Shown here piece after piece: positions 4,124 through 41,455 of a stretch of DNA of 64,000 nucleotides. Each line of letters opens with the position of its first letter. Position 1 is the stretch's first letter. The translations under genes were made by a program, and so were the position numbers. This stretch comes from a virus: IMG/VR virus record IMGVR_UViG_3300022937_000008, positions 32,001 to 96,000 of that record. One strand, 5' to 3'. The notes under the pieces were generated by a model. The model searched no databases and was not told the DNA's origin. It saw nothing but the letters and a program-made list of their open reading frames with translations.

Positions 4124-5206
4124 TTATTCTCCACTAGTTGCTACTTCAGCCTCCTTGCTAGTTTCCTCAACAACTTCTTCTTGATCAATGAGTTCTGGTT
4201 TAGCATTAAGGTCTGAGATTATCATATCTAATTTATCTCCAACCCACGCTTTACGATACTCAATATGGTCATTGCCTGCAAGGTCAGTGTATTTAAGTCT
4301 ATTGCCTTCTTTTTTCAAAATACCTTTACCTTCGAATAAATCAACCAGTCCTGAATAAGGATCCATTCCTGTTTCATATGGAATCTTAACCTGTACTGCT
4401 TCAAACGGTTTTGCGTAACGAGTTTTCATTACTTTACAAGCCGCTCTAATACCACGTACATCAGTTACTTTGTTACCGTCTTCATCTTCTTTCAGTTTCA
4501 ATTTACGCATTGCTACTACAATTGAACTTGCATAGATAAAGCCTTGACCACCTGAGATTTTATCATCTGGATCAAACATATCTTGTGATGCATAAGTGTG
4601 ATTAGTTGCTACAAGTCCTACATTATGTGAACCAAACATATTAACCGAATTACGAACAAGTGCTGTTAGTGCTTTAGGCTTACGACCCATATCACCTTTT
4701 AAATCACCCTTGTCAAACTGATCAACATCTGTTGGAGTCAGTAGCATACCTAGTGAATCAATTACAAACAATACTTTCGGACGATCTTCTTCTGCCATTT
4801 CTCTATACTCTTTCATAAATTCTGAAATAGTTTTAGCGACATCGTCGATCATACTCATGTTAAGTTTAAGTAATTTTTCTTCACTTGTATCAACATTAAG
4901 TGCCTGCAACCATTGTTCGTCAAGTGCGTTCTCTGAGTCAATAAGAACTACAAAGATACCTTGATCTTGTGCTGCTTTAACAATATTTGCTGAACAGAAG
5001 TATGATTTACCACTACCTGATTCACCTGCAAATACAGTTACCTTTCCTAACGGAACACCTTTGTGAAAATCTCCACTGATCAAATAATTGAGTGCATAGT
5101 TACCTGTGCTAACCCAATCAGTGGGATCATTAAAACCAATACCAAGTCCGTCAATACTTTTAGTAAGGCTTTTTCTAAATTTACTAATATCAAATGGTTT
5201 TGCCAT
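4124..5206 (-). CDS. uvsX: UvsX / RecA-like recombinase
   Basis: Walker A GESGSGKS, IDSE, VIDSLG and SGGQG motifs; start at MAKPF preceded by GGAGA. Confidence 0.95.
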   Translation of the reverse strand: MAKPFDISKFRKSLTKSIDGLGIGFNDPTDWVSTGNYALNYLISGDFHKGVPLGKVTVFAGESGSGKSYFCSANIVKAAQDQGIFVVLIDSENALDEQWLQALNVDTSEEKLLKLNMSMIDDVAKTISEFMKEYREMAEEDRPKVLFVIDSLGMLLTPTDVDQFDKGDLKGDMGRKPKALTALVRNSVNMFGSHNVGLVATNHTYASQDMFDPDDKISGGQGFIYASSIVVAMRKLKLKEDEDGNKVTDVRGIRAACKVMKTRYAKPFEAVQVKIPYETGMDPYSGLVDLFEGKGILKKEGNRLKYTDLAGNDHIEYRKAWVGDKLDMIISDLNAKPELIDQEEVVEETSKEAEVATSGE

Positions 5207-5227
5207 GTTTATCTCCTTCCATATACT

Positions 5228-5252
5228 ATAGGGAGTGACTAGCACTCCCTAT
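5228..5252. terminator. Stem-loop between gp32 and uvsX
   Basis: ATAGGGAGTG-actag-CACTCCCTAT, a perfect 10-bp inverted repeat; no U-tract on the coding (-) strand. Confidence 0.5.
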
Positions 5253-5262
5253 GTATTTTTTA

Positions 5263-6246
5263 TTAGCCTTGTTGTCTGTTACGAATCATTGCAAGAATAT
5301 CTTGCGCTCTATTTGCGCTGTCATTACCTGCTGTAGATTCTTCAGCCGCTGGTGCTGCTGTTTCAGTTACTGGCTCTGCCGCTGGAGTTGGAGTTGCTGC
5401 TGCCGGTGCAGATGGTGCTGCCTTACTTGTTACATTCGGATCACCTGTCTGCTGTGACATACCTGCTGGACGGAAGTATTGTCCCCAACGTTCCATATCA
5501 TATGCTTCACCGTCTACTGACGCTTCAAACATTTCTTTCATTACTTTAAGTTCAACTTCAGTTGGCTTCTTAGGTAAGAAGTCTGATAAGTTAAACAATC
5601 CATGACTATCAACTGCTGCTTGTTCTTCATCAGTTAATGATCTTTCTCTACGTGACCATTGTGATGTTGAGTAATCAGCATAGCCGCCTTTAGAAGTTTT
5701 CTTAATTCTAAAGTCTACGCCTTTTAGATAATCTGTTGGAAGTTCTTCCAACTCAGGATCCATTAAAGCACTTTTAATAATTTGGAAAATTTGTGGTCCA
5801 ATAATAAAACGTCTAATTGGATTATCTGGGGTAGTTTCTTCGTTTAGTGGATCATCTGAAACAAAGCCTTGGAAAATGTATGAACGCTTTTTCCAATACT
5901 TACGGCCCATATCTTCTAGTGACTTGTCTTTAAACCAGCCACGTACTTCAGATAGGATCGGACAAGTAGTACCGTCATTGTACATTTCCACGCATGGAAC
6001 CTGAACAATTGTTTGACGATTGTCTGACTCGCCTTTAACTCCCGCAAATGGAAGTTTGATCATTGCACGTTCAACCCAAAAGAATGTGTTGGCTGAGTTA
6101 CCATCTGGTAAGAACCTTACCACGGCTTCTTTGCCTTCTTGCATATTCCAATGTGGGTAAACTGCGTTATCGCCGCCACCTGTGTTTCCAGATGTACGTG
6201 TTTGAGCTTCTTGAAGTTTAGCTCGGATTTCTGCTAATGTTGCCAT
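5263..6246 (-). CDS. gp32: gp32-like single-stranded DNA-binding protein
   Basis: VVRFLP, CPI, KKRSY and GYADYSTS motifs; low-complexity C-terminus; adjacent to uvsX. Confidence 0.9.
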   Translation of the reverse strand: MATLAEIRAKLQEAQTRTSGNTGGGDNAVYPHWNMQEGKEAVVRFLPDGNSANTFFWVERAMIKLPFAGVKGESDNRQTIVQVPCVEMYNDGTTCPILSEVRGWFKDKSLEDMGRKYWKKRSYIFQGFVSDDPLNEETTPDNPIRRFIIGPQIFQIIKSALMDPELEELPTDYLKGVDFRIKKTSKGGYADYSTSQWSRRERSLTDEEQAAVDSHGLFNLSDFLPKKPTEVELKVMKEMFEASVDGEAYDMERWGQYFRPAGMSQQTGDPNVTSKAAPSAPAAATPTPAAEPVTETAAPAAEESTAGNDSANRAQDILAMIRNRQQG

Positions 6247-6533: not shown

Positions 6534-6747
6534 AGTCTGATCCTTTATTAAATGATTGTATGTCTATGCAGATTTCTAATTGTATGTTTGATAGTGTTTT
6601 AGGATCTTGATCGCAATGAATAGTACCGTGCTGTACACTTTCATGCATATCAGGTTCTTTACTTATAGGTCCATACCAAATTAAAAATGCAAATAAACCA
6701 ATGATTAACAATAAACCCCAACCGCTTGGGTTTGGTGCTTTATCCAT
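6523..6747 (-). CDS. Small membrane-anchored hypothetical protein
   Basis: N-terminal hydrophobic helix WGLLLIIGLFAFLIWY. Confidence 0.6.
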   Translation of the reverse strand: MDKAPNPSGWGLLLIIGLFAFLIWYGPISKEPDMHESVQHGTIHCDQDPKTLSNIQLEICIDIQSFNKGSDYDR

Positions 6748-6756
6748 TTTTACTTC

Positions 6757-6918
6757 CTAAACGCAGTCGCCTATATCTAATAGTCTTAGATAGACTCCGC
6801 GATCATATTCATCTTTAGATAACCAATTTCCTTTACTAAAGACAGCAAGGTTACCATTTTGATCTAGTGCTTGTTGTCCTTCGAAAGGTTCAGGTATCTC
6901 CCTTACAACAACTTTCAT
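6757..6918 (-). CDS. Hypothetical protein (53 aa)
   Basis: Hand translation MKVVVREIPEPFEGQQ...LLDIGDCV with an AAGGA ribosome-binding site. Confidence 0.55.
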   Translation of the reverse strand: MKVVVREIPEPFEGQQALDQNGNLAVFSKGNWLSKDEYDRGVYLRLLDIGDCV

Positions 6919-6944
6919 AATAATTCCTTTTGAGAATGTTAACT

Positions 6945-6973
6945 AAAAATGCTCCGCTTTGTGAGCGGAGCAT
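6945..6973 (-). terminator. Rho-independent terminator after pqqA
   Basis: 10-bp stem ATGCTCCGCT/AGCGGAGCAT followed by a T-run on the minus strand. Confidence 0.85.
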
Positions 6974-6992
6974 AGTTTTTACGCAAATAAAA

Positions 6993-7064
6993 TTACTTGT
7001 TCATGATGTACATAGTAACTTCAAATCCAAAGCGCATTTCTTCTGCTACTGGCTTAGTCCACAT
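6993..7064 (-). CDS. pqqA: PqqA, pyrroloquinoline quinone precursor peptide (23 aa)
   Basis: MWTKPVAEEMRFGFEVTMYIMNK*: MWxKP start plus RxGFEVTMY with the conserved E-x-x-x-Y; AAGGAGA RBS; downstream terminator. Confidence 0.95.
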   Translation of the reverse strand: MWTKPVAEEMRFGFEVTMYIMNK

Positions 7065-7092
7065 AATGTGTCTCCTTTTCAGATTAAATTAT

Positions 7093-7140
7093 GTAAACAG
7101 TTCATCGGAGATGCTGACCCAAAGTCCGATTTGAGTTCAC
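7093..7140 (-). ncRNA. Putative structured cis-regulatory RNA in the pqqA leader
   Basis: Nested pairings GUGAAC/GUUUAC, AUCGGA/UCCGAU and GAC/GUC immediately 5' of the pqqA RBS. Confidence 0.55.
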
Positions 7141-7144
7141 CTAG

Positions 7145-7175
7145 AAAATAAAAGTGTAGTATTGCTACTACACTT
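7145..7175 (-). terminator. GCAA-loop hairpin with U-rich tail upstream of the pqqA leader
   Basis: AAGTGTAGTA-GCAA-TACTACACTT followed by TTATTTT on the minus strand. Confidence 0.65.
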
Positions 7176-7176
7176 C

Positions 7177-7215
7177 TATTTAACTCTATTATAAATGATT
7201 AATTAAAAAAATCAA
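7177..7215 (-). promoter_or_regulatory. Sigma70-like promoter plus late TAAATA upstream of pqqA
   Basis: TTGATT-16 nt-TATAAT at 7215-7188 and TAAATA at 7182-7177. Confidence 0.55.
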
Positions 7216-7227
7216 TAAAGAAAATCA

Positions 7228-9480
7228 TTAAAACTGTATAAGTGATTTAATACGTTCTAATTCTTCTAGTTCTTCTGCGCCTTGTTCTTGGTGTGGAGCC
7301 ATTCTTTCTACCATTTTACGAGCAATTGTTCCAGCCTGTTCACCAAACTTTTTGTCTACCATTACTGCAACGCCTTCTGGTCCTTTAGGGAATGTGCCTG
7401 AATTTGTATCATAAAACGAATGTACAAATTTTGCAACATCTTCTAGTGTATGTTCTTCACCGTCTGAAGTCTTAAACTTAGTGCCTTTCTTAGCACCCTG
7501 TGATTTTAGGTCCTGAACTTTTTTGCTAAATTCATTACCTTCGGGCATATCATCCTGTCCTACATACTTGTAGTTGCCTTTGTCATCAAAGTCGTTTTCA
7601 ATTGTATCGATGGCAAATTTGATCTCCATCGGATCCGCTTTCTCGCCCTTGATTGCATTAATGACTTCTTGCTTGGACATCTTAAGTCCACTTTCCTTGT
7701 CACCGTCGTTGGTATAGTCTGAAATTAATTCATCAACACCAATCATTATGTCTGACATTCCGCCTTCTTTAGTAACGCCTTCTTCTGCATATGATTCTGC
7801 TTGATAACCTGCTTGTTCTAGAGCATCTAAAATTTTCTCTCTAGGAGTCATTGTATGAATTATAACGCCGCCTTGTTTGGCTTCGTCTGGTTCACAAGCA
7901 GCCTTAATACCTTTGCTTTGTAATTCTTTTTCCATTGATGCACAAGCCTTTTCATCAATGCCTCTATCTTCGTCATAGTCTCCGTCAACATAAATTGCAT
8001 GAGCATATGGCTCTGATTGCCCTTCATATCCTGATGCTTCTTGTTGTGGTTCAACTTCATCTGCACCAACTGCTGGTTCATCAGTCATATCACCGAAATC
8101 TAATTCTTCAGCAACTTCAGGTGCATTTTCATCAATCCATGCTTTAACTAAAGATCTAATATCTGCGTTAGCATCTTCTGAAGCTTTCTTTTTAATGTCT
8201 TGCTCTAATTTTGGATCTTCAATAATGCCTTCTAAACTTTGAATAGCATTAGTACCATCTACGCCTGCTTGGAATTCTTGACCCACTAGTTCATTTAATT
8301 TTTTAATCATGTCAGCCTTTTCTTCATCGTCTGCCATTACTAATGGTGATTCTTCGCCTAGTGCAGTTGCCCAGTTTTCAAATTTATCAAAAATATCTGA
8401 TTTTAATTGTTCTTCTGTTTGAGGTGCTTCAACATCCTTTGTCATTTCGACTATGTCGTCGTAGCCTACTGTTTCTTCTTCTTTCATCAATCTATATAAA
8501 ACTGGAAAGACTTCTGCAATATCCTCTTTGAAATTTTTAACTGTAAATTTTTCTTTAAATTGTTCCATTACATCATCAGGTACTTCATAACCTTGTTGTG
8601 CTGCAAAGGATTCTCTATATGATTCGTAATGTGCCTGTTTCGCTAATTTAGCAACTGTTTCTCTTAGATTATCAAGTTGCATTTTACTACGCTCAACGAT
8701 TGAATTTGTGTCGGAGTTCATTAAATCGTTTCTTACTACGTAATTTGTAAAACTTTTTAGTTGAGCAATTTCTTCACTCATCTTGATAATACTTTCACCA
8801 ATTTCATCGTATGGTAATCCACCATTAGCAACGTGACGTTGCATAGCACGAGCTCCTGCTAAATGGATAAATGGATATTTAAATCTTTCACCTGATGAAT
8901 TTTCTACAAACAACGCAGCGATATTTCTTGATCTATCTCCTGGTCTTTGTTCATGATCATCAGCTAATGTTTTGCTGTGTTTAATAATTAATCTTGTATC
9001 TTCTAGTTTTTGGAAACTTTGCTTCTTCGTTCCATAAAGTGAGCTCTCATTCATTACGTTTTCTCCGACAGGCTTAGTAATTGTATCATTGTCTGCTTTA
9101 GGTGTTGCATACTGACTTAGGAAACTGTAGTCTCTTTTGTCTAGATTGTCTTTTGTAATATCTCTAGTATCAAATGCTAGTAATCTAAGTTTTGCAAATT
9201 GACGAAGTTCTCTTAAAAATTTATACCACCCTGTTTTTTGTTTATCGTCCATACCTTCAGTAATACCACTTGAAAAGTATACTTTCATTGAATTAGGCTC
9301 AGCTAGGCTAATGCTAACATGACCTAATCTTTTGTCATTTTCTACATAATCAAAGTCAAAAAATCTAGCGTCTTCAGGGTTAATTGTAATCGCGCCAGCT
9401 GCTTCACCTAACTTTAAGCCAGTGAATCTACTTCTAATTTTGTAGAACAAGTCTGTTGATATATTACCGGTTGCATCCAT
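7228..9480 (-). CDS. Large acidic hypothetical protein (750 aa), probably virion/head-associated
   Basis: Long ORF directly downstream of the terminase gene with a TAAATA motif upstream; no recognisable catalytic motif. Confidence 0.6.
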   Translation of the reverse strand: MDATGNISTDLFYKIRSRFTGLKLGEAAGAITINPEDARFFDFDYVENDKRLGHVSISLAEPNSMKVYFSSGITEGMDDKQKTGWYKFLRELRQFAKLRLLAFDTRDITKDNLDKRDYSFLSQYATPKADNDTITKPVGENVMNESSLYGTKKQSFQKLEDTRLIIKHSKTLADDHEQRPGDRSRNIAALFVENSSGERFKYPFIHLAGARAMQRHVANGGLPYDEIGESIIKMSEEIAQLKSFTNYVVRNDLMNSDTNSIVERSKMQLDNLRETVAKLAKQAHYESYRESFAAQQGYEVPDDVMEQFKEKFTVKNFKEDIAEVFPVLYRLMKEEETVGYDDIVEMTKDVEAPQTEEQLKSDIFDKFENWATALGEESPLVMADDEEKADMIKKLNELVGQEFQAGVDGTNAIQSLEGIIEDPKLEQDIKKKASEDANADIRSLVKAWIDENAPEVAEELDFGDMTDEPAVGADEVEPQQEASGYEGQSEPYAHAIYVDGDYDEDRGIDEKACASMEKELQSKGIKAACEPDEAKQGGVIIHTMTPREKILDALEQAGYQAESYAEEGVTKEGGMSDIMIGVDELISDYTNDGDKESGLKMSKQEVINAIKGEKADPMEIKFAIDTIENDFDDKGNYKYVGQDDMPEGNEFSKKVQDLKSQGAKKGTKFKTSDGEEHTLEDVAKFVHSFYDTNSGTFPKGPEGVAVMVDKKFGEQAGTIARKMVERMAPHQEQGAEELEELERIKSLIQF

Positions 9481-26158: not shown

Positions 26159-28231
26159 TTAGTATTTCTTAACTCTTATATTTAAACCGTTTCTAGTGTT
26201 TAAATTTGACATAACTTTTCTAGGCCCGATCTTAAATCTCGCATCAACAGCACCCTGATATAGAACTCTTGGAGATCCACCTTCTAAACTTCGATAGTCA
26301 GTCCAATTCGCATCGTTAGGAGTGGTTGATTCAGTACCATAATAAAAGTCCGAACTGTCTTGGGCTGTAAGTCCAAGGCACCATTCTTTTAATTCTTTCC
26401 ATGTCCAGTCTCTGTTGTGTTCCATAATTGTTGCTAAAAATCCACAAGCAACAGGACAAGCAGCACTTGTTCCACTGAAAGCACAATCATATGCAGTTCC
26501 ACCGTTATATGTAAATCCACTGTATGTAGCAGGATACTGTCCTTGATTGGTATAAGCCTTGTTTGCTGCTAGTGTGCCATCAGCAGCAGCATACACATCT
26601 ATACCTTCACCTCTATCGCTATAACTTACTTTAGTTTCAAGACTACCATTATAATCATCATCTAATGCTCCGATGTTTATAGTTTTATAGTCAGTGGTTC
26701 CATCTTCTTTAATGTATCTTCCACCTTGTTGTGGAAATCCTGTTCTATTTGTTGTTCCGTATACAGCAACACCAAATTCAAACATTACTGAACCTTCTAA
26801 ACTTCCGCCGTCGGTTGTTGTAATGTAATTGTTGTAATCAGGATGACCTTCTTTAACTACCTTTTGGTTAGAATTTCCAGCTGCACCTATGAATATCACA
26901 CCTTCTTCTATCATCTCGTCCTCAGCAGTAGTCAGTGAATTATCAATCATTTGACTTTTCCAACGTCCGCCGTCCCCCTGTGTTCCCATATGACTTAACC
27001 AAGCAATTCCAGTTTCTGTTGTATAGGATACATTGGCAGTTGCACGGTGAGTATAATATAAGGTTGATGCATTAGAAACATTGGCATTGGATCCGCTTGG
27101 AGCCTTGTTTGATCGAAACCCCCAACTGTTAGAACTTAGTGTTGGATCTTTTGCACCAAAGAGAGGATTAACAGGTTTTAGTCTATGAAATAGTTTTTGT
27201 ATATCAAATCCTTCTTCAATACCTGAACCATAAGCTCCATAAAGATCAAGCATCCATTTATTAGCATTGTACGCCCAGCCCTGTGTTCTTCCGAATGTTA
27301 ATGCACCACAAGGTGTGCCGTGTTCTCCATCAGTGCCTGATGGTCTAATAGTATTATCGCCACTTGTATTTAATCTGGTATAAGTTGCGCTAACTGTTAC
27401 TGTTCCTTCGTTCGCAAACTTTGCGCTTCGCGCACCGGCATTCCCCCACCAATCTCTTGCCACACTCTCCACAGGAACAGTTGTACCGTCCCAGCGTGTG
27501 GTTAATCTTGTACCTGGATCAGCATCAAACCATTCTGGATCAATATAATAAGGTGCATCAAGAACAAGATCCAATACATCACAAGTACCGTTTCCTGGAA
27601 GTAAATTTCCGCCTGTATATCCTGTTGGCTTTTCAACTTCTGTTACTCCATCTGAAAGTAATACACAATTGTTTTGGAATTCGGGATGTCCTATCCACAT
27701 TCCTTCGTCACATACAATAACATCAATATTTTTTCCTGTTCCGTACTGAGTAGGATTTATTTCAGGGATAGCATTATCTGCTAGTGAATTATCTACCCAA
27801 GGATCTAAAAACTGTTGATGTCTATAAAGTGAATAACTTGCACGATTAGAATCTGCTGCTGTAGGTATTCCACCTGGCAATGTATTAGAAACTGAAAACT
27901 CTCTATAGTTTTTAATTGTTCCGGAATAACGAGCTACTAATTCTGGACGGACTGCTTGTAGTTCATCCTGTGGTGGTTTAAATTCTTCTGGATATTTAGA
28001 ATAATCGATATTAATAAATCTTATTCTAGGATCATTTTTAAGTTGATCTGCTTCTTCTTGTGTAAGTAGGTATGTACCGCGAGTTGAACTATGTAATTTA
28101 TCATCATCACATTCAATACAACGTTCCGGTACTTCGTCACAATTATGGCCATCGTGTACAAGTTCGTGATGTAGTTCGTCCCATTGTTCTTCGGTATACG
28201 TACCAAGTTGGTAATATTTTTCCTCAGCCAT
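26159..28231 (-). CDS. Subtilisin-like serine protease (S8)
   Basis: Catalytic triad VCDEG / HGTPCG / SGTSAACP; oxyanion AAGN. Confidence 0.9.
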   Translation of the reverse strand: MAEEKYYQLGTYTEEQWDELHHELVHDGHNCDEVPERCIECDDDKLHSSTRGTYLLTQEEADQLKNDPRIRFINIDYSKYPEEFKPPQDELQAVRPELVARYSGTIKNYREFSVSNTLPGGIPTAADSNRASYSLYRHQQFLDPWVDNSLADNAIPEINPTQYGTGKNIDVIVCDEGMWIGHPEFQNNCVLLSDGVTEVEKPTGYTGGNLLPGNGTCDVLDLVLDAPYYIDPEWFDADPGTRLTTRWDGTTVPVESVARDWWGNAGARSAKFANEGTVTVSATYTRLNTSGDNTIRPSGTDGEHGTPCGALTFGRTQGWAYNANKWMLDLYGAYGSGIEEGFDIQKLFHRLKPVNPLFGAKDPTLSSNSWGFRSNKAPSGSNANVSNASTLYYTHRATANVSYTTETGIAWLSHMGTQGDGGRWKSQMIDNSLTTAEDEMIEEGVIFIGAAGNSNQKVVKEGHPDYNNYITTTDGGSLEGSVMFEFGVAVYGTTNRTGFPQQGGRYIKEDGTTDYKTINIGALDDDYNGSLETKVSYSDRGEGIDVYAAADGTLAANKAYTNQGQYPATYSGFTYNGGTAYDCAFSGTSAACPVACGFLATIMEHNRDWTWKELKEWCLGLTAQDSSDFYYGTESTTPNDANWTDYRSLEGGSPRVLYQGAVDARFKIGPRKVMSNLNTRNGLNIRVKKY

Positions 28232-31069: not shown

Positions 31070-32547
31070 AAGACCTAATTGTGTTAGGCGGCGGCAATGC
31101 TGGTCTTATGACAGCATTATACCTTAAAGAAAGTATTCCTAATCTTAACCTAACTGTAATTAAATCATCCAAGATTGGAACTATCGGTGTTGGCGAAGGA
31201 TCTACTGAACATTGGAAAATGTTTGCTTCTGCAACTAGAATTTCAATCGTAGATATGATAAGAGAGTGCGGTGCTACATTTAAGATAGGAATTAAGTTTG
31301 AAAATTGGCATGGTGATGGAACTAGTTACTATCATAGTTTGCCTGAAGCTCTAGTAGACACAGATAGTTATACAGGTATTCCGTATGCTATGCTTAAACT
31401 TATTGCAGATGGTACAGGCACAGAAAATCTGCACTGGCAATTGCCTATGGACGGATATATTAGAGAACCGTTAGATCAATACTATCAGTTTCATTTTGAC
31501 AGCGAAAAATTAAACACGTATCTTCTAAAAAAGTGTGATGAAAGAGATATTAAAGTTGTTGATGCTGAGATCAATAATTGTGTATTAGATAACGAAGGGT
31601 TTATTTCCTCTATAGTCGATGACAATGGGCTATCATATTCAGCAGATTTCTTTATAGACAGCAGTGGATTTAAAAGAGTACTTGCATCAAGACTTGGAGC
31701 AGAATGGGTTGATTGGTCAGAGTACTTACCTACAAACAGTGCGTTGGCTTTTCAAACACCATACGAAGAAAATATTCCTCCATATACACTATCTCGTTCT
31801 ATGAATGCTGGATGGATGTGGAGAGCTCCTGTACAGGATAGATTCGGTAACGGATATGTTTATGATGATAGATTTATTTCAGAAGAAAATGCATTAAAAG
31901 AAGTACAACAATACTTTGATTTTCCTTTAAACATAGGACGTAGAATCAAATACACTTCAGGAAAAGTAAACAAAGCATGGATTAAAAATTGTGTTTGTAT
32001 TGGATTAAGCAGTAACTTTGTTGAACCGTTAGAAGCAAGTAGCATATCAACTACTATACAACAGAGTAGACTACTAGCAAGTTCTCTTTGGAATTGGAAT
32101 AGATCAGATCAAGGAACAATTAACAAATATAATGAAATTGTTGATGACATGATGTTTAATATTTTAGACTTTATACAATTACATTATTATACTCAAAGAC
32201 AAGACACTAAGTTTTGGAAATGGTGTAAGAATGAAATGAAGATTACAGATTTTAATAAAGAGAATTTATCAAACTTTAAAAATAATTTTATTAGTCAAAC
32301 ATTATTACCAGAAGACGGAACGTTCGGAACCTATAGAATTTATGATTGTTTAAATTGGATTCAAGTAATGCACGGGTTGCGTATGTTTAATATAGAAAAT
32401 ATCAAGAAGATATATAATAGTCATACCCATTTAAAAAATATAGAATTAGAATTTTTGCAATTGCCAAGTCAACCAGATGAAACATGGATTACTTGTCGTG
32501 ATGCTGTAAATTTAGTCAAGAACAGTGTAACGGAAATTAAGTTATGA
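31063..32547 (+). CDS. Flavin-dependent halogenase (tryptophan halogenase family)
   Basis: GGGNAG, GVGEGS, ATFK with the catalytic-position Lys, WMWRAP and FVEPLEAS. Confidence 0.9.
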   Translation: MVKDLIVLGGGNAGLMTALYLKESIPNLNLTVIKSSKIGTIGVGEGSTEHWKMFASATRISIVDMIRECGATFKIGIKFENWHGDGTSYYHSLPEALVDTDSYTGIPYAMLKLIADGTGTENLHWQLPMDGYIREPLDQYYQFHFDSEKLNTYLLKKCDERDIKVVDAEINNCVLDNEGFISSIVDDNGLSYSADFFIDSSGFKRVLASRLGAEWVDWSEYLPTNSALAFQTPYEENIPPYTLSRSMNAGWMWRAPVQDRFGNGYVYDDRFISEENALKEVQQYFDFPLNIGRRIKYTSGKVNKAWIKNCVCIGLSSNFVEPLEASSISTTIQQSRLLASSLWNWNRSDQGTINKYNEIVDDMMFNILDFIQLHYYTQRQDTKFWKWCKNEMKITDFNKENLSNFKNNFISQTLLPEDGTFGTYRIYDCLNWIQVMHGLRMFNIENIKKIYNSHTHLKNIELEFLQLPSQPDETWITCRDAVNLVKNSVTEIKL

Positions 32548-34052
32548 TTAGATCATTATGTGTACTAGGTGGAGGAACTGCTGGATTAATTTCTGCATTA
32601 ATGATGCGTAAAGCATATCCTACTTTAAAAATTACAATATTAGAATCGTCTAAGATAGGTATTATTGGTGTAGGTGAAGGCAGTACAGAACACTGGAAAC
32701 CTTTTATGGAATATATCGATGTTGATGTTCCTACAATTGTAAGAGAGTGCGGAAGTACATTTAAAATAGGTATTAAATTTACAAACTGGAACGGCGACGG
32801 AAAATCTTATTGGCATAGTTTAACAGAACAGTATAACACTTTACATCAAGATAACGATGCCCCATTAAGTTGGTTTAGATACACAGGCGAGAATTGGGAT
32901 CCTGAAGAAACTGCTTGGGATTTATCAAGAAATAGCAAACATCCTGAGCCTTTCCATGAAATTATTTCTCAATATCATTTTGATACATTTAAATTAAACA
33001 AATTTTTTCATAAGTTATGTGCAGAAAGAAACATAGAAGTTATTGACACAGATATATCTGATGTAATCGTTGATAAAGATGGCTATGCTGATTACTTAAT
33101 AGATGAACACGGTAAACAATATAAAGCAGACTTTTACATTGATAGTAGCGGCTTCAGAAGAATTATAAGCAGTAAATTAGGTGCTAAATGGGTTGATAAA
33201 CAAAAACAATTACCAATGAATAGTGCTATTGCATTTCCAACAGGTTACACTGAAAACATTCCTTCCTATACTGAAGCAACAGCATTAAGTAGTGGATGGG
33301 TATGGAGAATTCCAACACAAGAACGATATGGAAATGGTTATGTTTTTTGTGACAACTTTATCAATGAAACACAAGCATACGATGAAGTTTCAAAGCATTA
33401 TAAAGAAAATTTAAAAATTACTCAAGAATTAGAAATAGGTAGAAAAGTAAAATTTAGTGCAGGATATTTAGATAAATTCTGGATTAAAAACTGTTTAACA
33501 GTTGGGCTATCAGGTATGTTTGTTGAACCATTAGAAGCAAGTAGTATAGGTTCTACAATACAAGAAATTAGATTAGCTATTCCTAGTTTCCATTACTGGA
33601 CTCGAGGAGAAACAATAACAGAAAATGTTTTTAATGATAGAATGATTAGAATAGCTGAAAATATTGTAGACTTTATTCAATTACACTATATTACTAAACG
33701 CAATGATACTGAATTCTGGAAATGGGTCAACAAAGAAATTGTTTATACAGATTTTATTAGAGAAAATTTAGAATACTTTAAAAAGAATGGTGTTAATTCA
33801 CAAATGTTCGGAATAGAACCATTGTATATGTTTTCTTATCTAAATTGGAGTCAAGTAATGCACGGTCTATCATTATTTGATTATGATGCTCGCAAGAAGT
33901 ATTGGGAAGAATTTTGGAGTAAAGAACATTCAGAAAATTTGGATAATTTATTTAAACACGGCAATGCAGTAGATATGAGTACTGTTCGAACACATAGAGA
34001 AGCATTAAATATTTTAAAAGAAAGATATTTGGAAGTACGTTATGAATTATAA
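32544..34052 (+). CDS. Flavin-dependent halogenase (tryptophan halogenase family)
   Basis: GGGTAG, GVGEGS, STFK, WVWRIP and FVEPLEAS. Confidence 0.9.
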   Translation: MIRSLCVLGGGTAGLISALMMRKAYPTLKITILESSKIGIIGVGEGSTEHWKPFMEYIDVDVPTIVRECGSTFKIGIKFTNWNGDGKSYWHSLTEQYNTLHQDNDAPLSWFRYTGENWDPEETAWDLSRNSKHPEPFHEIISQYHFDTFKLNKFFHKLCAERNIEVIDTDISDVIVDKDGYADYLIDEHGKQYKADFYIDSSGFRRIISSKLGAKWVDKQKQLPMNSAIAFPTGYTENIPSYTEATALSSGWVWRIPTQERYGNGYVFCDNFINETQAYDEVSKHYKENLKITQELEIGRKVKFSAGYLDKFWIKNCLTVGLSGMFVEPLEASSIGSTIQEIRLAIPSFHYWTRGETITENVFNDRMIRIAENIVDFIQLHYITKRNDTEFWKWVNKEIVYTDFIRENLEYFKKNGVNSQMFGIEPLYMFSYLNWSQVMHGLSLFDYDARKKYWEEFWSKEHSENLDNLFKHGNAVDMSTVRTHREALNILKERYLEVRYEL

Positions 34053-35580
34053 TGCAGTGATTTTAGGTGGCGGTTCCGCTGGCTGGTTAACAGCACTATG
34101 GGTTAAGAAATTTTGGCCTAATCTCAAAATTGCTATCGTTGAAAATCCTAAGAAACCTCCTATTATTGCAGGAGAAAGTGGAACGACTACGTTTGTAGAT
34201 CTATTAAGAAAGATTGACATAGACAAAGATGATTTTGTTACAAAGGTGTTTGCTACACCTAAGTTAGGTGGAAAATTTACAGACTGGAACGGTGTAGGGA
34301 CAGAGTTCATACATTGTTTACAAACAGATTATGCACCTTGGTTAGATGGATGGAGCGATTATTACGATACTCCGGAGTCTCAGCCTTTACTGTTTGGTAA
34401 TATGCTAAACATCATGCAACGAGAAAGAGAAAAAGATACATATCTAAAAACATTAATAGCAAATAATGTTCCTTTGTCAGATGCATTCTATGCAAATCAA
34501 TTTATAAAAAATAATAAAGTTCCTTTCGGTTCTAGTACACACAACCTGCCTGTTATTCCTATGTGGCATTTTGAAAGTAGATCAGCTGCTGCTTATTTTA
34601 AAGAAATAGGACTATCAAGAGGAATAGAACTTATCGAAGGAGAGTTTCAAAGTGCAAAATTAAAAACTGACGGAAACTGTGAATCAATCTTACTAGATGA
34701 AAATAGAGAAATAACAGCAGATTGGTTTTTTGATTGTAGTGGTTTTGCTAGATTACTTTTAGAAAAAACCATGAAGGAACCTATTTTAGATTATACAGAT
34801 TACTTTCCAGCTAGAGCAGTAGTTGCCTGGTGGGACGATCCTTGTTACTGTGTTACAACAAATGCTATTGCAATGAAGTATGGCTGGAGTTGGAACATTA
34901 ATCTAAGACATAGAAGCGGAAACGGTTATCTATATGATCCAGATCATTTAACATTAGATCAAGCAATACAAGAAGCGGAAAAACGATTTGATAAAAAAAT
35001 AGAACCTATAGCAAACTTTAGTTTTCAACCTGGAATGATGAGAAACACTTGGAAAAACAACGTCATAGCTATTGGTTTGAGCAACGGATTTTTAGAGCCG
35101 TTAGAAGCAAACGGGGTTGCTGTTATTATAGAAAGCCTATATGCACTACAAGATCATTGGCACCCTGAAAGAAAAGGATATGTATCTAACAGATTTAATG
35201 ACAGAGTTTGGTCAGTGAGTGAAGATATTAAAGATTTCTTAGCGTTACATTATAGAGGAAAACGCAAAGACACTGAGTTTTGGCAAAGTCATCAAAACGA
35301 TGAATTTAGAATTCCGGAAACTTTAAGATTAAAATTAGAGGACTGGAAACAATGGTATTTGCACGGAGGTGCAGAACCACTTTATAACGGGTATAGTCCA
35401 ACAGCATGGCTGATGGTATTACAAGCACTACAGGTATATGATCATAGCATACTTTCAGCTAGATACGAAAAACTGCTAACAATATCCTCAAATGTGCTAA
35501 ATAATAATATACAACGTTACAAACAGCTTGTTGCTCCATTTTTAACCATTGAGCAATGGGTGGATAATTATGCTAAATAG
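34042..35580 (+). CDS. Flavin-dependent halogenase, divergent
   Basis: GGGSAG, AGES, ATPK, WSWNIN (variant of WxWxIP) and FLEPLEANG. Confidence 0.85.
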   Translation: MNYNAVILGGGSAGWLTALWVKKFWPNLKIAIVENPKKPPIIAGESGTTTFVDLLRKIDIDKDDFVTKVFATPKLGGKFTDWNGVGTEFIHCLQTDYAPWLDGWSDYYDTPESQPLLFGNMLNIMQREREKDTYLKTLIANNVPLSDAFYANQFIKNNKVPFGSSTHNLPVIPMWHFESRSAAAYFKEIGLSRGIELIEGEFQSAKLKTDGNCESILLDENREITADWFFDCSGFARLLLEKTMKEPILDYTDYFPARAVVAWWDDPCYCVTTNAIAMKYGWSWNINLRHRSGNGYLYDPDHLTLDQAIQEAEKRFDKKIEPIANFSFQPGMMRNTWKNNVIAIGLSNGFLEPLEANGVAVIIESLYALQDHWHPERKGYVSNRFNDRVWSVSEDIKDFLALHYRGKRKDTEFWQSHQNDEFRIPETLRLKLEDWKQWYLHGGAEPLYNGYSPTAWLMVLQALQVYDHSILSARYEKLLTISSNVLNNNIQRYKQLVAPFLTIEQWVDNYAK

Positions 35581-35600
35581 TATGCAAGGAGTTAATTGTA

Positions 35601-35759
35601 ATGAAAACTTATAAGATTATTTTAAGAGTGGCACACGGAGTACTCGAAGTTAGAGAAGACACTTGTCAGGCAAGAAACGCTGAAGAAGCACAAAAAATCT
35701 TCGAAGAAAGACACGGTGTAGAACTAATTGTTGCTGGTCCTTTGCCAGTTAGCAATTAA
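35601..35759 (+). CDS. Small protein (52 aa) at the junction of the convergent operons
   Basis: Hand translation MKTYKIILRVAHGVLEVREDTCQARNAEEAQKIFEERHGVELIVAGPLPVSN; AAGGAG RBS and TAAATA upstream. Confidence 0.7.
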   Translation: MKTYKIILRVAHGVLEVREDTCQARNAEEAQKIFEERHGVELIVAGPLPVSN

Positions 35760-36382
35760 CGATCAAACCCCATTTCTTTTCTAGCAGATTCAAGCTCGTC
35801 TTTAATAGCTTGATTAACAAATTCCGAAGGTAAACCTAAACAAGGCCTAGTATCCCATTTTAAATGTGCATACGGGCCTTTTTCATCTACATACTGTAAA
35901 AATGCCTGTATTACTTTTTGTCCAGTATACGGCTCTCTCCAATGTTCGTGTCTACGACCACTGTAGATAACTATGTCTCCAACATCTAAGATTATTTCGT
36001 GAATGTTGCCTTCTTCATTTTTAATGTATAACGGCCAGTCTTGATCTTCTTTTGTAATAGAAACACTTACAGATATTTCAGAACTGCTACGATCAAAGTG
36101 CTTTCCTAGTTCAGATCCGTTGTAATATATGCGAGCATAACTGTAAACAGGTACTAATTTCTTTCCTACTTTTTCACTTACTAATGGTGTAAGTTTTAGC
36201 ATTAATGCTTCAAACATTAAAGGAGCATATCTTGCAAATGTATTTTCACACATATCTGATAAGTTTGCACCAGGATATAATACTTGACATACATCGTTTT
36301 GCATTTCATATTCTAATGCCATAAACTCGCAAAGCTCTTTGCTTACGGCATTTTTAACAATAATATAATCTTCTTTCATCAT
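35756..36382 (-). CDS. Fe(II)/2OG oxygenase
   Basis: YARIY, KHFDR, GDIVIY, EHWR and FLQY. Confidence 0.8.
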   Translation of the reverse strand: MMKEDYIIVKNAVSKELCEFMALEYEMQNDVCQVLYPGANLSDMCENTFARYAPLMFEALMLKLTPLVSEKVGKKLVPVYSYARIYYNGSELGKHFDRSSSEISVSVSITKEDQDWPLYIKNEEGNIHEIILDVGDIVIYSGRRHEHWREPYTGQKVIQAFLQYVDEKGPYAHLKWDTRPCLGLPSEFVNQAIKDELESARKEMGFDR

Positions 36383-36930
36383 ACTAACGGAATCATACTC
36401 ATGTTACCAAAAGGTCTTTCTACATAGTTTCTAATAAACTCATTATTAGGAATAGTATGTATATCAAAACCTAGTGTAGTTCTATAACCTTCGTAAGGTT
36501 CTAGTACTTCTACTTTGTGTTTTACAAATCCAGGACCAAAATATATTTGTCCGGGTTTATTTTCAATAGTCCAATTTTCAAACACTGTGTTTGTTTTTTT
36601 AGGATCTATTGATATATAGCCATGATAATCAAACTCATGTCCGTGCCAATCTAATACTTCATCGTGTTTATGATAGTTGATCCAAGATTGCAACCATAAA
36701 GGTCGATCATCGCCAAGTTCTTTTCTTACAAACTCTCTTAATTCAACATATAAAGAATACCATGCTGTACTAGGAGCAGTTAGTGTAAACACATTATACT
36801 TGTTATAGGACCATGTACTATCTTTGTCAGGAAAGACAGTTTCAAATACCTTATGTGCTTCATTAAGGCTGTGAACTATTTCGTCGTAGTTTTCTAAAAT
36901 AGTTTTAGATGTTATGAGTTTGTATTCCAT
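36379..36930 (-). CDS. Putative Fe(II)/2OG oxygenase (HxH type)
   Basis: SWIN, WHGH, KHKV and RTTLGFD. Confidence 0.65.
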   Translation of the reverse strand: MEYKLITSKTILENYDEIVHSLNEAHKVFETVFPDKDSTWSYNKYNVFTLTAPSTAWYSLYVELREFVRKELGDDRPLWLQSWINYHKHDEVLDWHGHEFDYHGYISIDPKKTNTVFENWTIENKPGQIYFGPGFVKHKVEVLEPYEGYRTTLGFDIHTIPNNEFIRNYVERPFGNMSMIPLV

Positions 36931-37532
36931 ATGTTTCTCAAATTCATGTTAATCACCATTCTAAATTTAGAATTTCTTGCCCATGAAGAACTATGATAAT
37001 ACTTTCCAGGAAATATTAGTATTCTTCCTTTTTTAGGTGTTACTCTTTGCTTAACTGTAAAATTATTTTCTTTTATTCTAATAATATCATCTTGACCGCT
37101 ACTGTATGTGTCGTTGGTTTCGTTAAAAATAACAGTGTCGCCATCGCTATCATTGACATAATATATTGCATTCCAGTGTTCAAAAAAACTATCTATATGC
37201 GGCATATGCCAGTCTAATTTACTTACTTTGTTAGGTAATGTTAAGTTTGCTCGCATTCTAATTAACTGATTAAAAGAAACATTGGCTTGACTTGTGATAC
37301 TTAACACTAAAGGATACATTACATTGAAATGCATACTTTTAGGTTCATTATGTTCATAGAAAAAATGATTAAACCCTGCATGATTGTCTTCTTGTGTTTG
37401 AAAATCTTCATCGCCTGATACCATTGATTGATTGAATACCCAACCAAAATCCCAACCAGTCATTAAATTTAAAATGTGGTCTTGATAGTCTTTAGGTATA
37501 ATATTATCAATTACAATTATATCATTAGTCAT
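36912..37532 (-). CDS. Fe(II)/2OG oxygenase
   Basis: PHID, YYVNDSDGDT, YHSS and RMVIN. Confidence 0.85.
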   Translation of the reverse strand: MTNDIIVIDNIIPKDYQDHILNLMTGWDFGWVFNQSMVSGDEDFQTQEDNHAGFNHFFYEHNEPKSMHFNVMYPLVLSITSQANVSFNQLIRMRANLTLPNKVSKLDWHMPHIDSFFEHWNAIYYVNDSDGDTVIFNETNDTYSSGQDDIIRIKENNFTVKQRVTPKKGRILIFPGKYYHSSSWARNSKFRMVINMNLRNIWNTNS

Positions 37533-38046
37533 GTACTGCTACTCCATAGAAGTTTATAAACAAACTACTATCTTCTTTAGTTTCTCCGTAAAATTTTTCA
37601 ATCTTATGAGGTTTTTCAGGTTCAAATATAACACATCTATTAAACACATTTTCTACTTTAATAGAAGGAACAATAGCATTTGATACTTTACTATAGAATG
37701 TTATTCCTGAATTTTCAGGAGGATTAGGATTTAAAAATATTGTTCCTGCTATATTGTACATTCCATTTAATTCAACTATTTCTGATGTATGTTTACTATC
37801 AACTAAATTAAAATCACAATGCACAAAATTAAATCTATATTTGTTAGGCACATGAACTATTAGTTTTGCAAGAATTGTATCAAACAAATTAAAGTTTATT
37901 TCGTCAAGAGTTTTTGAACGCAATCCGTAATACGCATCATTATCTTGTTCTAAATAATCTAATTTTAAAGCACTGTGTCTAACAAGTGTAGGTGCTTCAA
38001 AAAAATCATCTATAACTTTTACAGGTTGTTTAACGTCTTTGATCAT
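37525..38046 (-). CDS. Degenerate Fe(II)/2OG-oxygenase paralog
   Basis: Resembles the neighbouring 38043 ORF (IDDFFEAP, GLRS, FNRCVIF) but lacks HxD. Confidence 0.6.
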   Translation of the reverse strand: MIKDVKQPVKVIDDFFEAPTLVRHSALKLDYLEQDNDAYYGLRSKTLDEINFNLFDTILAKLIVHVPNKYRFNFVHCDFNLVDSKHTSEIVELNGMYNIAGTIFLNPNPPENSGITFYSKVSNAIVPSIKVENVFNRCVIFEPEKPHKIEKFYGETKEDSSLFINFYGVAVHD

Positions 38047-38750
38047 ATTGCTTTAACAAAAAACACTTGTGTTAATCGGTTAGTGTCTTTACTGTTCCCA
38101 AAAAATTCTTCTGCACTGTGCCATGCTCGTGTGTCAAACATTATACATCTATTGTAGACACTCTCCATAGTTACTGTTTTTTTAAAAAGTTTTGTTTGTT
38201 CTTCTCTGTATTTTTGATATGGTTTTCTTTCTTCTTCAGTATCAGATAATACATCTTTCATAAACTTGTCTGCATATTCATCTAAATTTAGATTATCTTT
38301 ATCTTCATACACAACAGTTCCACTTCCTAGTGGAGCTTCTTTGTTAAGATAAATTACTCCTGCAATATTAAGTTTTGGATCATCGTCGTGTACCCAACCT
38401 CTTCCATATGTTTCATCTACCATGTGGAATGCTGTTTGAAATTCAGAGAAAGATCTATAACCATAATCTCTAATCCAGAAAAGTAATTTTTTTCCGAACA
38501 TTTCAAACAACGGTAAATTATTTTCATGAAATAACTTAGTTCTAAGACCCGGCCAACTACCTCGCTTTCCTTTAAAAAATTCTTGATCTAGTGCAAATTC
38601 TCTCCATAGATCTGGCTCGTCGTAGAAGTTATCTATAATAGTTGTTGGAAAGTAAGGATACAGATTTCTATCTTTAATTTGATTATTAGAGATATACTGA
38701 CTAGAAGCCTTATCGCTTTCTATCAAACTATTAATATAATCGTTATCCAT
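38043..38750 (-). CDS. Fe(II)/2OG oxygenase (DUF6445-like)
   Basis: IDNFY, PGLR, VHDD, IYLN, WHSA and RLTQVFF. Confidence 0.8.
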   Translation of the reverse strand: MDNDYINSLIESDKASSQYISNNQIKDRNLYPYFPTTIIDNFYDEPDLWREFALDQEFFKGKRGSWPGLRTKLFHENNLPLFEMFGKKLLFWIRDYGYRSFSEFQTAFHMVDETYGRGWVHDDDPKLNIAGVIYLNKEAPLGSGTVVYEDKDNLNLDEYADKFMKDVLSDTEEERKPYQKYREEQTKLFKKTVTMESVYNRCIMFDTRAWHSAEEFFGNSKDTNRLTQVFFVKAI

Positions 38751-39348
38751 TCTTTTGACCTGCTGTAAAATTCATAGTAAGTACAATTCTTTGGTTATGC
38801 ATCTTAGGACAAGTACTTGCATGAAAGTGCCAACCATTGAATACAAGAACTTTTCCTTGAAGAGGCTCGCTTTTAAATTTACGATGATACTTTTGTCCTG
38901 TTAATAAAGGTTGATCTTTCTCGTGAAAAATTACAGTATCACCATCGCTTGAATTAACATAATAACACGCTGTAAAATGTTCCTGTTCATAATCTCTATG
39001 CGGAGTATTATATTCATAAGGTAAATGAGGGAAACTATACTTTGTGTTTAACAAAAATCCTAATCTCATTCTAAGTAATGTATGTAATTCTAATCCTGCT
39101 TTTTCACAAGTTGCATTTAACAATGGCATAAAAAAATCTAAGTGAGGATTATGTTGATTATTAGGATGATATATTAAATGAGCAAAACTAGGTGTTGAAT
39201 GTCTTGGATCTTGATCTAAACGATCTTCATATGTAGTATCGTTCATAAAATGCCAGTCAAACTCAATATTAGTAACTTTATTTAAAATTTCCATAGAGTA
39301 ATTGTAATCAATTACATCATATATTTCAATTGGTTCAAAATCAGTCAT
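38743..39348 (-). CDS. Fe(II)/2OG oxygenase
   Basis: PHRD, YYVNSSDGDT and FHAS; paralog of the 36912 ORF. Confidence 0.85.
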   Translation of the reverse strand: MTDFEPIEIYDVIDYNYSMEILNKVTNIEFDWHFMNDTTYEDRLDQDPRHSTPSFAHLIYHPNNQHNPHLDFFMPLLNATCEKAGLELHTLLRMRLGFLLNTKYSFPHLPYEYNTPHRDYEQEHFTACYYVNSSDGDTVIFHEKDQPLLTGQKYHRKFKSEPLQGKVLVFNGWHFHASTCPKMHNQRIVLTMNFTAGQKNG

Positions 39349-40060
39349 GTTGTATCCTATAAAAATTTCTATCAATACTTCCTGTTGCATCTTCAGTTGG
39401 AAGTTTCTGCCAACAAGGAATACTCATAGACAATCGCTTTCCTTTAGGATATGCACAATGATACATTCTTGAAGGAATATATAAAACGTCTCCTGGTTTA
39501 AGTGTAACGTCTATTGCTAGTTCTAAATCATCTTCTTTAAGTTTATTGTTTAGCAAACCAGTTCTATGCATATAAGTTATTCTATTATTAAAAATTTTCC
39601 AGTGTGTTTCGCCTTCAACTTGAATAATAAAATTAGCAGGATAGTCTTCATGTATATTAAAACTTTTTGCATCTTGTAAACCAAAGTAAACATGAATAGC
39701 TGAATTTACACTGTACATACTTTCAAACATTGCAAGAAGTTCCATAGTTTTTTTACTATAGAATGCATAATCTAAATTAATTAAACCGCAACCTTCGTGT
39801 AGTTTGTCAAATAAAAATTGTTTATCTTGAACAGGCCTATTCCATATCCACGATTTATTGTATGCTGGTACTTCTATTTTAGTACCTGTAGGATCAATAA
39901 CTTCAAAATTATACTGTGCTGAATTATTCATAGTCCATTCAACATCGTCCCACGTACAATATATACTAGGATCAGAAATAAGATTTTCCCAATAATGCGG
40001 AGCATCATTGATCATTAAATCTGTTTCTTTAAGAATTCTTTGGGAAATATCTGTCATCAT
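39341..40060 (-). CDS. JmjC / cupin-4 (ribosomal-oxygenase-like) protein hydroxylase
   Basis: SFNIHED, FIIQVEGETHW, LKPGDVLYIP, YH and RLSMS. Confidence 0.85.
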   Translation of the reverse strand: MMTDISQRILKETDLMINDAPHYWENLISDPSIYCTWDDVEWTMNNSAQYNFEVIDPTGTKIEVPAYNKSWIWNRPVQDKQFLFDKLHEGCGLINLDYAFYSKKTMELLAMFESMYSVNSAIHVYFGLQDAKSFNIHEDYPANFIIQVEGETHWKIFNNRITYMHRTGLLNNKLKEDDLELAIDVTLKPGDVLYIPSRMYHCAYPKGKRLSMSIPCWQKLPTEDATGSIDRNFYRIQHD

Positions 40061-40655
40061 CTGTCCTAAAATATTTAACATTCCAAGAAATAGAAATTCT
40101 ATCTTCGTCGGTACTATTTCTTTCTACACCGTGCGGTAAGTTTCCAGGGAATATTAAAATTTTTCCTGTTTCTGCTTCATATCTTATTGCACTTGCACTT
40201 ATTGCTGTGTGTTGCTCAATCGGTGCTCTCGAAGCAACTATAAAATCTGCATTGTAATCTTTATAAAAAATTATTCCACCTTGGTCTGGAGTTGCTTTAA
40301 CATAAAAGGCTCCACTAATAAAAGAATTATCGTGGATATGAACACTATTTGTATCGCCTTTTTTATTAATATTGGCCCAAAGATTTTCAATTACAATAAA
40401 TCCTGCATCTTGATTATAACCATAATCAATTATGCATCGTTGCGCTTGTTCTAATATTAAATCTTCTAAAGGTTTCATTTCAGGATAAGTTCCTGGACGG
40501 AAATCCATTGACTGCCAGCCGCCTTGATTACTTAAATATCTACCTTTTGTATCTTGTTCGTATAATTTATAAACAAGTTTTTCAATACTATCAGTATCAA
40601 TATTAGTTGTTGTCCACCATACTGGAGTAGGAAAGAAATGATCAAAGTGCCACAT
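40029..40655 (-). CDS. Fe(II)/2OG oxygenase (HxH type)
   Basis: FPTP, GGWQS, WANIN, HIH, SGAFYV, PHGV and RISISWN. Confidence 0.88.
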   Translation of the reverse strand: MWHFDHFFPTPVWWTTTNIDTDSIEKLVYKLYEQDTKGRYLSNQGGWQSMDFRPGTYPEMKPLEDLILEQAQRCIIDYGYNQDAGFIVIENLWANINKKGDTNSVHIHDNSFISGAFYVKATPDQGGIIFYKDYNADFIVASRAPIEQHTAISASAIRYEAETGKILIFPGNLPHGVERNSTDEDRISISWNVKYFRTDDDRYFPKNS

Positions 40656-41455
40656 TATCTAATAACCTCCCCAAACGTTTTAGGTGGAGATAAATGTGAA
40701 AATGCAAATGCATGACTCCATCTAAAGTCTACGTTTTCAGAAATCACTGCACTGTGACAAATATTAGCATGATACATAGTCATTTTACCTTTAATACTTG
40801 GTGCTTGTCCTTTATATTCAAACCCCCATTCTGCTAATTCTTCGTCTTTCATATTAAACCAGCTCGGTGCTCTAAAAGGTTTTTCAGCCATTGCTCTCCA
40901 TTTTTCAAACATAGGATGTGTTTGATCTGTTTGAAAATCATATACACTATCCTTTAATACTCCATTATACTTATAAAGTTTTGTACTGCTATCTTTAATA
41001 TCGTGATCTGTAAACCAAAGGTTAGCAACTAATCCTTCAGGGTAATCAACGTGAGGTATTCTCCAACATGAAATAGGTCGTGCTCTATCTTTGTAATAAA
41101 CATTCCCCCATTCATGTATCTGTGGTTCAAATATATCAGGATTAGAATGCTGAATATAGAAATCTCTAATTAACACACATATATCTTGATAAACCCAATT
41201 AGGAAGATGTACAGTGTCAAAAGGATTAGGATCAAAATTATCAGGATGATTATTATCTTTTACAATAGGAAAACATTTAATTAACTCTTGAAAAGTTTCA
41301 AAACCTTCTTCTGTTTTAAAAGGATGATCAGCAATCCAAAACCCTATTCCGTCACCTAGGTCTGTGTATTCAGCATTTAATTCGTAAGGTTTTTTAAATT
41401 TAAAAACTTTATGAAAGTTATTTGCGTCAGGATTACAAACTTTAAAATCTATCAT
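40655..41455 (-). CDS. Putative Fe(II)/2OG oxygenase
   Basis: PHVD, NLW, CHSA and distal Arg. Confidence 0.65.
   Translation of the reverse strand: MIDFKVCNPDANNFHKVFKFKKPYELNAEYTDLGDGIGFWIADHPFKTEEGFETFQELIKCFPIVKDNNHPDNFDPNPFDTVHLPNWVYQDICVLIRDFYIQHSNPDIFEPQIHEWGNVYYKDRARPISCWRIPHVDYPEGLVANLWFTDHDIKDSSTKLYKYNGVLKDSVYDFQTDQTHPMFEKWRAMAEKPFRAPSWFNMKDEELAEWGFEYKGQAPSIKGKMTMYHANICHSAVISENVDFRWSHAFAFSHLSPPKTFGEVIR

Follow-up and report, generated by a model that had tools for sequence, protein, structure and literature searches.

The cofactor PQQ is made from a peptide, PqqA. PqqD and PqqE cross-link a Glu and a Tyr of this peptide, after which a peptidase, PqqB and PqqC complete the molecule, so that each PQQ uses up one PqqA. 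Methylophilaceae depend on PQQ methanol dehydrogenases. Viruses can carry the peptide gene: PqqA was described in the Lake Baikal T4-like population VP_266, predicted to infect Methylophilaceae (Coutinho et al. 2020, Microbiome; PMC7678222), and viral pqqA is also listed in a 2026 reservoir study. In VP_266, as at the locus analysed here, the PqqA gene belongs to a large T4-like virus with a low G+C content (about 35% in VP_266, about 37% in our record), and it was read as helping PQQ supply and methanol oxidation (PMC7678222). A difference, judged from the published description, is that a methanol dehydrogenase was reported in VP_266 and none is found in our 114-kb record. Other known parallels are psbA of cyanophages and mazG and phoH of the methylophage Melnitz, i.e. 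genes of host origin that lytic phages retain in order to maintain a host process that is limiting for phage production. Here, the product is neither an enzyme nor a structural protein, but a substrate consumed one-for-one by a peptide-modification pathway of the host. Since viral PqqA was published in 2020 (PMC7678222), our locus is one more example and establishes no new principle. What we add is a PA5oct-like jumbo lineage in which synteny around the gene is conserved, an estimate of selection on codons 6-23 that is free of ascertainment bias, a quantification of the covariation in the leader, and the restriction of this leader, among Methylophilaceae, to small genomes.

The window, i.e. 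the whole stretch of 64,000 nucleotides that we analysed, spans bases 32001-96000 of a viral IMG/VR record of 114,291 bp, which is 32% complete according to CheckV. The features relevant for the analysis are the following, in positions of the window.
4124-5245: UvsX-like recombinase (phrog_97, E = 2.2e-70), downstream of pqqA, after the gp32-like gene.
5263..6246, minus strand: gp32-like single-strand DNA-binding protein (phrog_1192, E = 7.7e-65), downstream of pqqA.
6944..6973, minus strand: intrinsic terminator after pqqA, with a 10-bp GC-rich stem, a CACAA loop and a T-run.
6993..7064, minus strand: pqqA coding sequence, 23 codons and a stop, matching PF08042 and TIGR02107.
7072..7077, minus strand: ribosome-binding site (RBS) AAGGAG, 7 nt before the ATG, as read from the sequence.
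7093..7140, minus strand: 5' leader, with an outer stem GUGAAC/GUUUAC around an inner stem AUCGGA/UCCGAU and conserved flanks CUCAA and GAnCUG.
7146..7181, minus strand: hairpin with a GCAA-type loop, an A-tract and a U-tract, between the promoter-like site and the leader.
7177-7182, minus strand: late-type TAAATA, after the sigma-70-like site.
7188..7215, minus strand: sigma-70-like candidate promoter TTGATT-16-TATAAT, a consensus match only (10/12).
7228..9480, minus strand: 750-aa putative virion structural protein, the upstream neighbour outside the cassette (phrog_13484, E = 1.6e-9, a weak match).

The pqqA gene is flanked by phage genes on both sides: UvsX, gp32, the virion protein and the large terminase (TerL), besides four small ORFs for which no match was found. 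TerL shares 54.6% identity with its homologue in the 287-kb Pseudomonas phage PA5oct and 44-52% with those of the jumbo phages Phosso, CBB and GAP32. Given this kinship of the terminase, the record is a fragment of a PA5oct-like jumbo phage, a myovirus with a genome of roughly 350 kb. The average G+C content of the record is about 37%. It falls to 0.32 at positions 32001-40000 of the window, over a run of about twelve minus-strand ORFs of 170-270 aa (35756-42054). A megablast search with the 7-kb neighbourhood of pqqA gave no match among GenBank phages. Two collinear contigs were found in IMG/VR, G118 (16 kb) and G119 (44 kb). Most of the proteins that they share with the window are 55-89% identical, and both have pqqA at the same site, adjoining the homologue of the 750-aa virion gene and following it. 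A three-way alignment of the window with two related loci (L042 and L044) shows that the coding region, the RBS and the leader are all conserved.

The pqqA ORF runs on the minus strand from the ATG at 7064-7062 to a TAA that ends at 6993, and its product is MWTKPVAEEMRFGFEVTMYIMNK. This peptide scores 38.1 bits with Pfam PF08042 (gathering score 21.1) and 35.8 bits with NCBIfam TIGR02107 (cut-off 20), and it was retrieved with 35.9 bits in a search of the genome with the PqqA profile. PqqA peptides have about 20-30 aa, their own start signals and a protein sequence under selection; the ORF has 23 aa and shares the other two traits. Residues Glu15-Val-Thr-Met-Tyr19 contain the Glu-x3-Tyr pair that forms PQQ. 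The MRFGFEVTMY core is nearly exclusive to Methylophilaceae, Methylophaga and a few methanotrophs, and the ...V/IMNK tail is the Methylophilaceae form. The window thus encodes a genuine phage-borne pqqA. A sequence-only reading of this DNA, made without database searches, had recognized the 23-codon ORF as PqqA, likened it to the Methylophilaceae form and noted that the window has no other pqq gene. The two curated models now establish the identity, the core and tail agree with the proposed family, and the absence of companion genes extends to the whole record. Indeed, profile searches of the 114 kb gave no match to PqqB, PqqC, PqqD or a PQQ-dependent alcohol dehydrogenase, and no true PqqE. 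The one match resembling PqqE, which we rejected, is a radical SAM protein of 377 aa: with 27.5 bits it stays far below the PqqE cut-off of 381, and it combines a Radical_SAM domain with an N-terminal zinc ribbon of the HMPTM type. Its gene lies 4 kb before the window (L002 886-2019, about 27060-28193 of the record, G000:C1) and adjoins an FkbM-type methyltransferase. The window pqqA is therefore not part of a pqqBCDE operon. Such an operon is no hallmark of the family in Methylophilaceae, most of whose pqqA copies are orphans.

Is the peptide made for an enzyme of the phage? About 32% of the genome is in hand, and a PQQ-dependent enzyme (e.g. of the XoxF type) encoded in the missing two thirds could use the PQQ, in place of host enzymes alone. 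Coutinho et al. indeed reported a viral population with both methanol dehydrogenase and PqqA (PMC7678222). We regard this explanation as unlikely. The 114-kb record encodes no PQQ-dehydrogenase, nor do 49 of the 50 viral records bearing pqqA, nine of which are at least 90% complete, and small complete methylophages carry pqqA alone. The sole record with both genes looks bacterial, which led us to discard the pairing of pqqA with a PQQ dehydrogenase in viral contigs. This record (G123, L252-L255; IMGVR_UViG_3300025120_009955, 72,356 bp) has a full-length XoxF/MxaF-type PQQ methanol/ethanol dehydrogenase at 33989-35863 (608 bits) and a pqqA near 41886 whose protein is identical to a host copy. 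It also encodes DnaK, GroEL, the alpha subunit of formate dehydrogenase, a ribonucleotide reductase, a curlin-repeat protein and a CHASE2 cyclase, and shares nothing with the phage of the window. From its gene content, it looks like a fragment of a Methylophilaceae chromosome filed as viral. Reports of viral methanol dehydrogenases deserve the same check for this reason.

We then compared the gene with those of other methylophages. A tblastn search of GenBank phages retrieved the peptide, at 83-87% identity, in Melnitz (4 strains), Venkman, P19250A, MEP301, MEP401, MEP402 and an uncultured podovirus from Manatee Spring. In the cultured phages, as in the window, the peptide has 23-24 aa, an RBS of its own and no pqq genes nearby, and Melnitz has the same PVA(Q/E)EM...YIM variant as the window. 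These phages differ in that they belong to other lineages (sipho-, podo- and myoviruses of 37-141 kb) with other neighbours around the gene, and in that pqqA is often antisense to its neighbours in the small ones. The gene is not annotated in the GenBank records of Venkman, P19250A, MEP301 and MEP402, whereas in Melnitz-1 (L003 3961-4056) and in the Manatee Spring podovirus (L005 2067-2195) the opposite strand bears a 'hypothetical protein' annotation. Neither the Melnitz paper nor the MEP401/402 paper mentions pqqA. Two matches labelled "Acinetobacter phage" were rejected, as they are bacterial pqqABCDE contigs. Further methylophages are listed in the taxonomy and were not among the matches (HIM624-A, phiMB624-A, MEP431-434, MG-MTP1, RSA-MFP1 and Venkman EXVC038S); we therefore do not claim that all cultured methylophages carry the gene.

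Metagenomes extend this distribution. A broad degenerate DNA pattern, which would also match PqqA of Pseudomonas, Acinetobacter and Klebsiella, occurs in at least 120 IMG/VR stretches. Among the matches listed, about 90% of 119 IMG/VR peptides are of the Methylophilaceae type ...EMRFGFEVTMYVMNK, and none of the 119 loci has pqqB-E nearby; among 120 bacterial loci, each of pqqB-E had a match at 25-35. At least nine pqqA-bearing viral records are genomes of 32-66 kb that are 94-100% complete. We also searched for the lineage with a string spanning the RBS to the start (AAGGAGAnACATTATGTGGACnAARCC), which includes the spacer of the window, AAGGAGAnACATTATG. It was found in 77 viral contigs and at least 120 metagenome contigs, against 0 of 120 bacterial loci. 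Two of the metagenome contigs with the string are very long and might yield the nearly complete genome of a jumbo phage with pqqA: Ga0255174_1000011 (L323, 207,869 bp) and Ga0255782_10000034 (L325, 117,987 bp).

To estimate selection on the peptide, we used 194 viral and metagenomic copies picked by the RBS and codons 1-5 only, which leaves codons 6-23 unbiased. All ORFs in this set that are not cut by the end of a contig have exactly 23 codons, and Arg11, Gly13, Glu15, Thr17 and Tyr19 are invariant (194/194). Among the 78 unique coding sequences, pS is 0.69 and pN is 0.16, for a dN/dS of about 0.09. The window pqqA is under purifying selection. A second set, picked by a peptide pattern and thus biased towards conservation, gave a dN/dS of 0.10 for viral copies and of 0.11 for bacterial ones, with third codon positions about three times more variable than first and second positions. 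The closeness of the two dN/dS values bears on the idea that the peptide is a decoy or a regulator, which would occupy the host PqqD and PqqE or act as a signal and so alter metabolism rather than raise PQQ. The N-terminal half of the peptide is unlike the commonest host forms at positions 6-8, and nothing more direct speaks for such a role. However, all residues that are invariant in bacterial copies are kept (Trp2, Pro5, Arg11, Gly13, Glu15, Thr17 and Tyr19), selection is as strong as in these copies, and many phage peptides are identical to those of hosts. A decoy or regulator is accordingly quite improbable.

The same data speak to whether pqqA is a passenger without function, brought in as chance host DNA, an assembly chimera or the remnant of an attachment site. 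The very small size of the gene and its likeness to host copies speak for this, as does the fact that some records filed as viral are bacterial, G123 among them. Yet its best match to any bacterial copy is 59 of 69 nucleotides, which argues against a recent capture, an attachment-site remnant or a chimera, and the peptide has been preserved although synonymous changes approach saturation. Independent contigs of different samples have the cassette in one and the same position, and homologues of the window neighbours are present at 56 of 193 RBS-anchored loci. Finally, the stems of the terminator and of the leader carry compensatory changes. We thus give the passenger explanation very little credence.

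The signals around the ORF suggest that it is transcribed on its own. The RBS is present in 113 of 118 viral pqqA copies, and across 45 aligned leaders its AAGGAG columns show little or no variation. The terminator hairpin (6949-6973) starts 19 nt past the stop and, with its T-run, folds at -18.1 kcal/mol (z = -5.2 versus shuffles); none of 200 shuffles folds as well. Its stem shows compensatory changes in L042 (GCTCCGC/GCGGAGC against GCCCTG/CAGGGC in the window), and L044, which is devoid of the small ORFs that follow pqqA in the window, has another hairpin and T-run at this position. More generally, 80 of 101 unique cassettes have a hairpin and T-run within 70 nt of the stop, where 1.2 are expected from shuffles. 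The sequence-only reading had described a stand-alone cassette with an RBS, a dedicated terminator and upstream promoter motifs. The first two elements hold. The third does so in part: TTGATT-16-TATAAT is present, but the pqqA region has 5 promoter-like sites for 4.6 expected from shuffles, so the motif is a candidate promoter only.

Between this motif and the leader, the hairpin at 7146-7181 is also stable (-18.1 kcal/mol, z = -6.65). It is kept with altered stem letters in L042 and is missing in L044. The simplest reading is that it is probably the terminator of the upstream 750-aa virion gene. Among the relatives, the hairpin and its U-tract are present in one subgroup and cleanly missing from another. 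Relatives without it have TTGACT-N16/17-TATAAT directly before the leader. Since a canonical promoter-like site abuts the leader in the latter, the two subgroups may differ in the timing of pqqA expression. As a whole, the arrangement is best explained if pqqA in the window is a tiny transcription unit of its own, with a host-type leader, a strong RBS, 23 codons and a terminator. We consider this likely, and the unit would then be expressed during infection.

The 5' leader has a nested fold that sits between the 7146-7181 hairpin and the RBS. Three pairs of the inner stem vary among the 45 distinct leaders that were aligned, and they covary without a single unpaired cell. Their counts are UA 19, GC 15, CG 10 and UG 1 for one pair, GC 21, UA 13, CG 6 and AU 5 for another, and GC 33 and AU 12 for the last. 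The covariation score of 0.50 exceeds that of shuffles (0.23), and shifting the partners by 1-3 columns brings it down to 0.11 or less. G-U pairs are frequent, which favours a structure in the sense-strand RNA over a DNA palindrome. Taken singly, the sequence folds with no exceptional stability (z = -0.6), and it is thus the covariation that supports the structure. The motif occurs once in the 114-kb record. A scan of positions 6700-7400 against Rfam (Rfam 15) gave only sub-threshold chance matches and no family, and a literature search did not find the motif. The idea that its CUCUCC acts as an anti-Shine-Dalgarno was dropped, as the host versions (AUCUUC) pair poorly with the RBS.

This leader is not specific to phages. 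A strict regular expression had suggested so, with 0 matches in 122 upstream regions of bacterial pqqA, but it demanded CTC before the 3' half of the stem and was hence too narrow. A covariance model (R1) overturned this result. It found the leader at the bacterial loci L193 and L183 and in 10 of 151 Methylophilaceae genomes, all ten of 1.2-1.4 Mb and with one copy each, and in 10 of 10 cases the match lies in front of the first of two tandem orphan pqqA genes, which are away from pqqB-E. One such locus (L193) is from a Tara Oceans marine MAG. The leader is therefore of host type, which points to small-genome Methylophilaceae as the source of the cassette and probably as the host. It may be a previously undescribed cis-regulatory RNA of one pqqA paralogue of these bacteria, captured with the gene by several phage lineages, which would give the phage copy the same response to a signal, or the same mRNA stability, as the host copy. 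We put this forward tentatively, at somewhat less than even chances.

The pqqA repertoire of Methylophilaceae was compared with the window gene. All 101 genomes searched have pqqA, in 1-12 copies; those of 1.2-1.4 Mb have 2-3 copies, nearly always three. In the latter (L453-L462, L193, L183), the two orphan genes of the tandem pair are about 200 bp apart, away from pqqB-E, and only the first of them (MWTQPTATEMRFGFEVTMYVCNK) has the covarying leader. This first gene resembles the window pqqA in its family, its length, the core EMRFGFEVTMY, the covarying leader and its position away from pqqB-E. It differs by 3-4 residues, the window having Val6, Glu8 and Ile20. The peptide type, the leader and the G+C content of about 37% together suggest that the host is probably a small-genome Methylophilaceae, possibly of the OM43 type. 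Such bacteria would be able to use the peptide: PqqC and PqqE score above the cut-off in all five small genomes searched, the leader motif is present in four of these, and the rest of the pathway is in this respect present in the candidate hosts.

We propose that the phage pqqA is an auxiliary metabolic gene that feeds the PqqBCDE of the host. The host PqqD would bind the phage peptide, PqqE would cross-link it at Glu15-Tyr19, and the peptidase, PqqB and PqqC of the host would finish PQQ, with one phage peptide used per molecule. PQQ, and with it the PQQ-dependent methanol dehydrogenase that provides the energy of the cell, would thereby stay available while host gene expression declines. This function fits the purifying selection, the repeated carriage by unrelated methylophages, the hosts with PqqC and PqqE and the 2-12 pqqA copies that these hosts keep, several of them dispersed even in genomes of 1.2 Mb. 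Several unrelated lineages infecting one host family keep the gene under strong purifying selection, which suggests that it pays for the phage. It is consistent with the observation that orphan pqqA copies are among the most highly expressed in a PQQ-overproducing methylotroph (PMC9851590), and overexpression of pqqA alone reportedly raised PQQ in Gluconobacter oxydans (as cited in PMC7936290). PQQ being a stable cofactor, the benefit of extra precursor within one infection is not certain. On balance, we hold the helper role to be probable; the peptide would be expressed and processed by the host, and may bring a gain in PQQ or phage yield.

These results have practical uses. Gene callers routinely miss pqqA, which makes a handy marker for Methylophilaceae phages in metagenomes. 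Host assignments could be narrowed to the small-genome Methylophilaceae with the help of the common leader RNA, which may itself be a regulatory element of small size. More broadly, the phage carries the consumable substrate of a host cofactor pathway, not an enzyme, which would point to the supply of the PQQ precursor as a limiting step in obligate methylotrophs.
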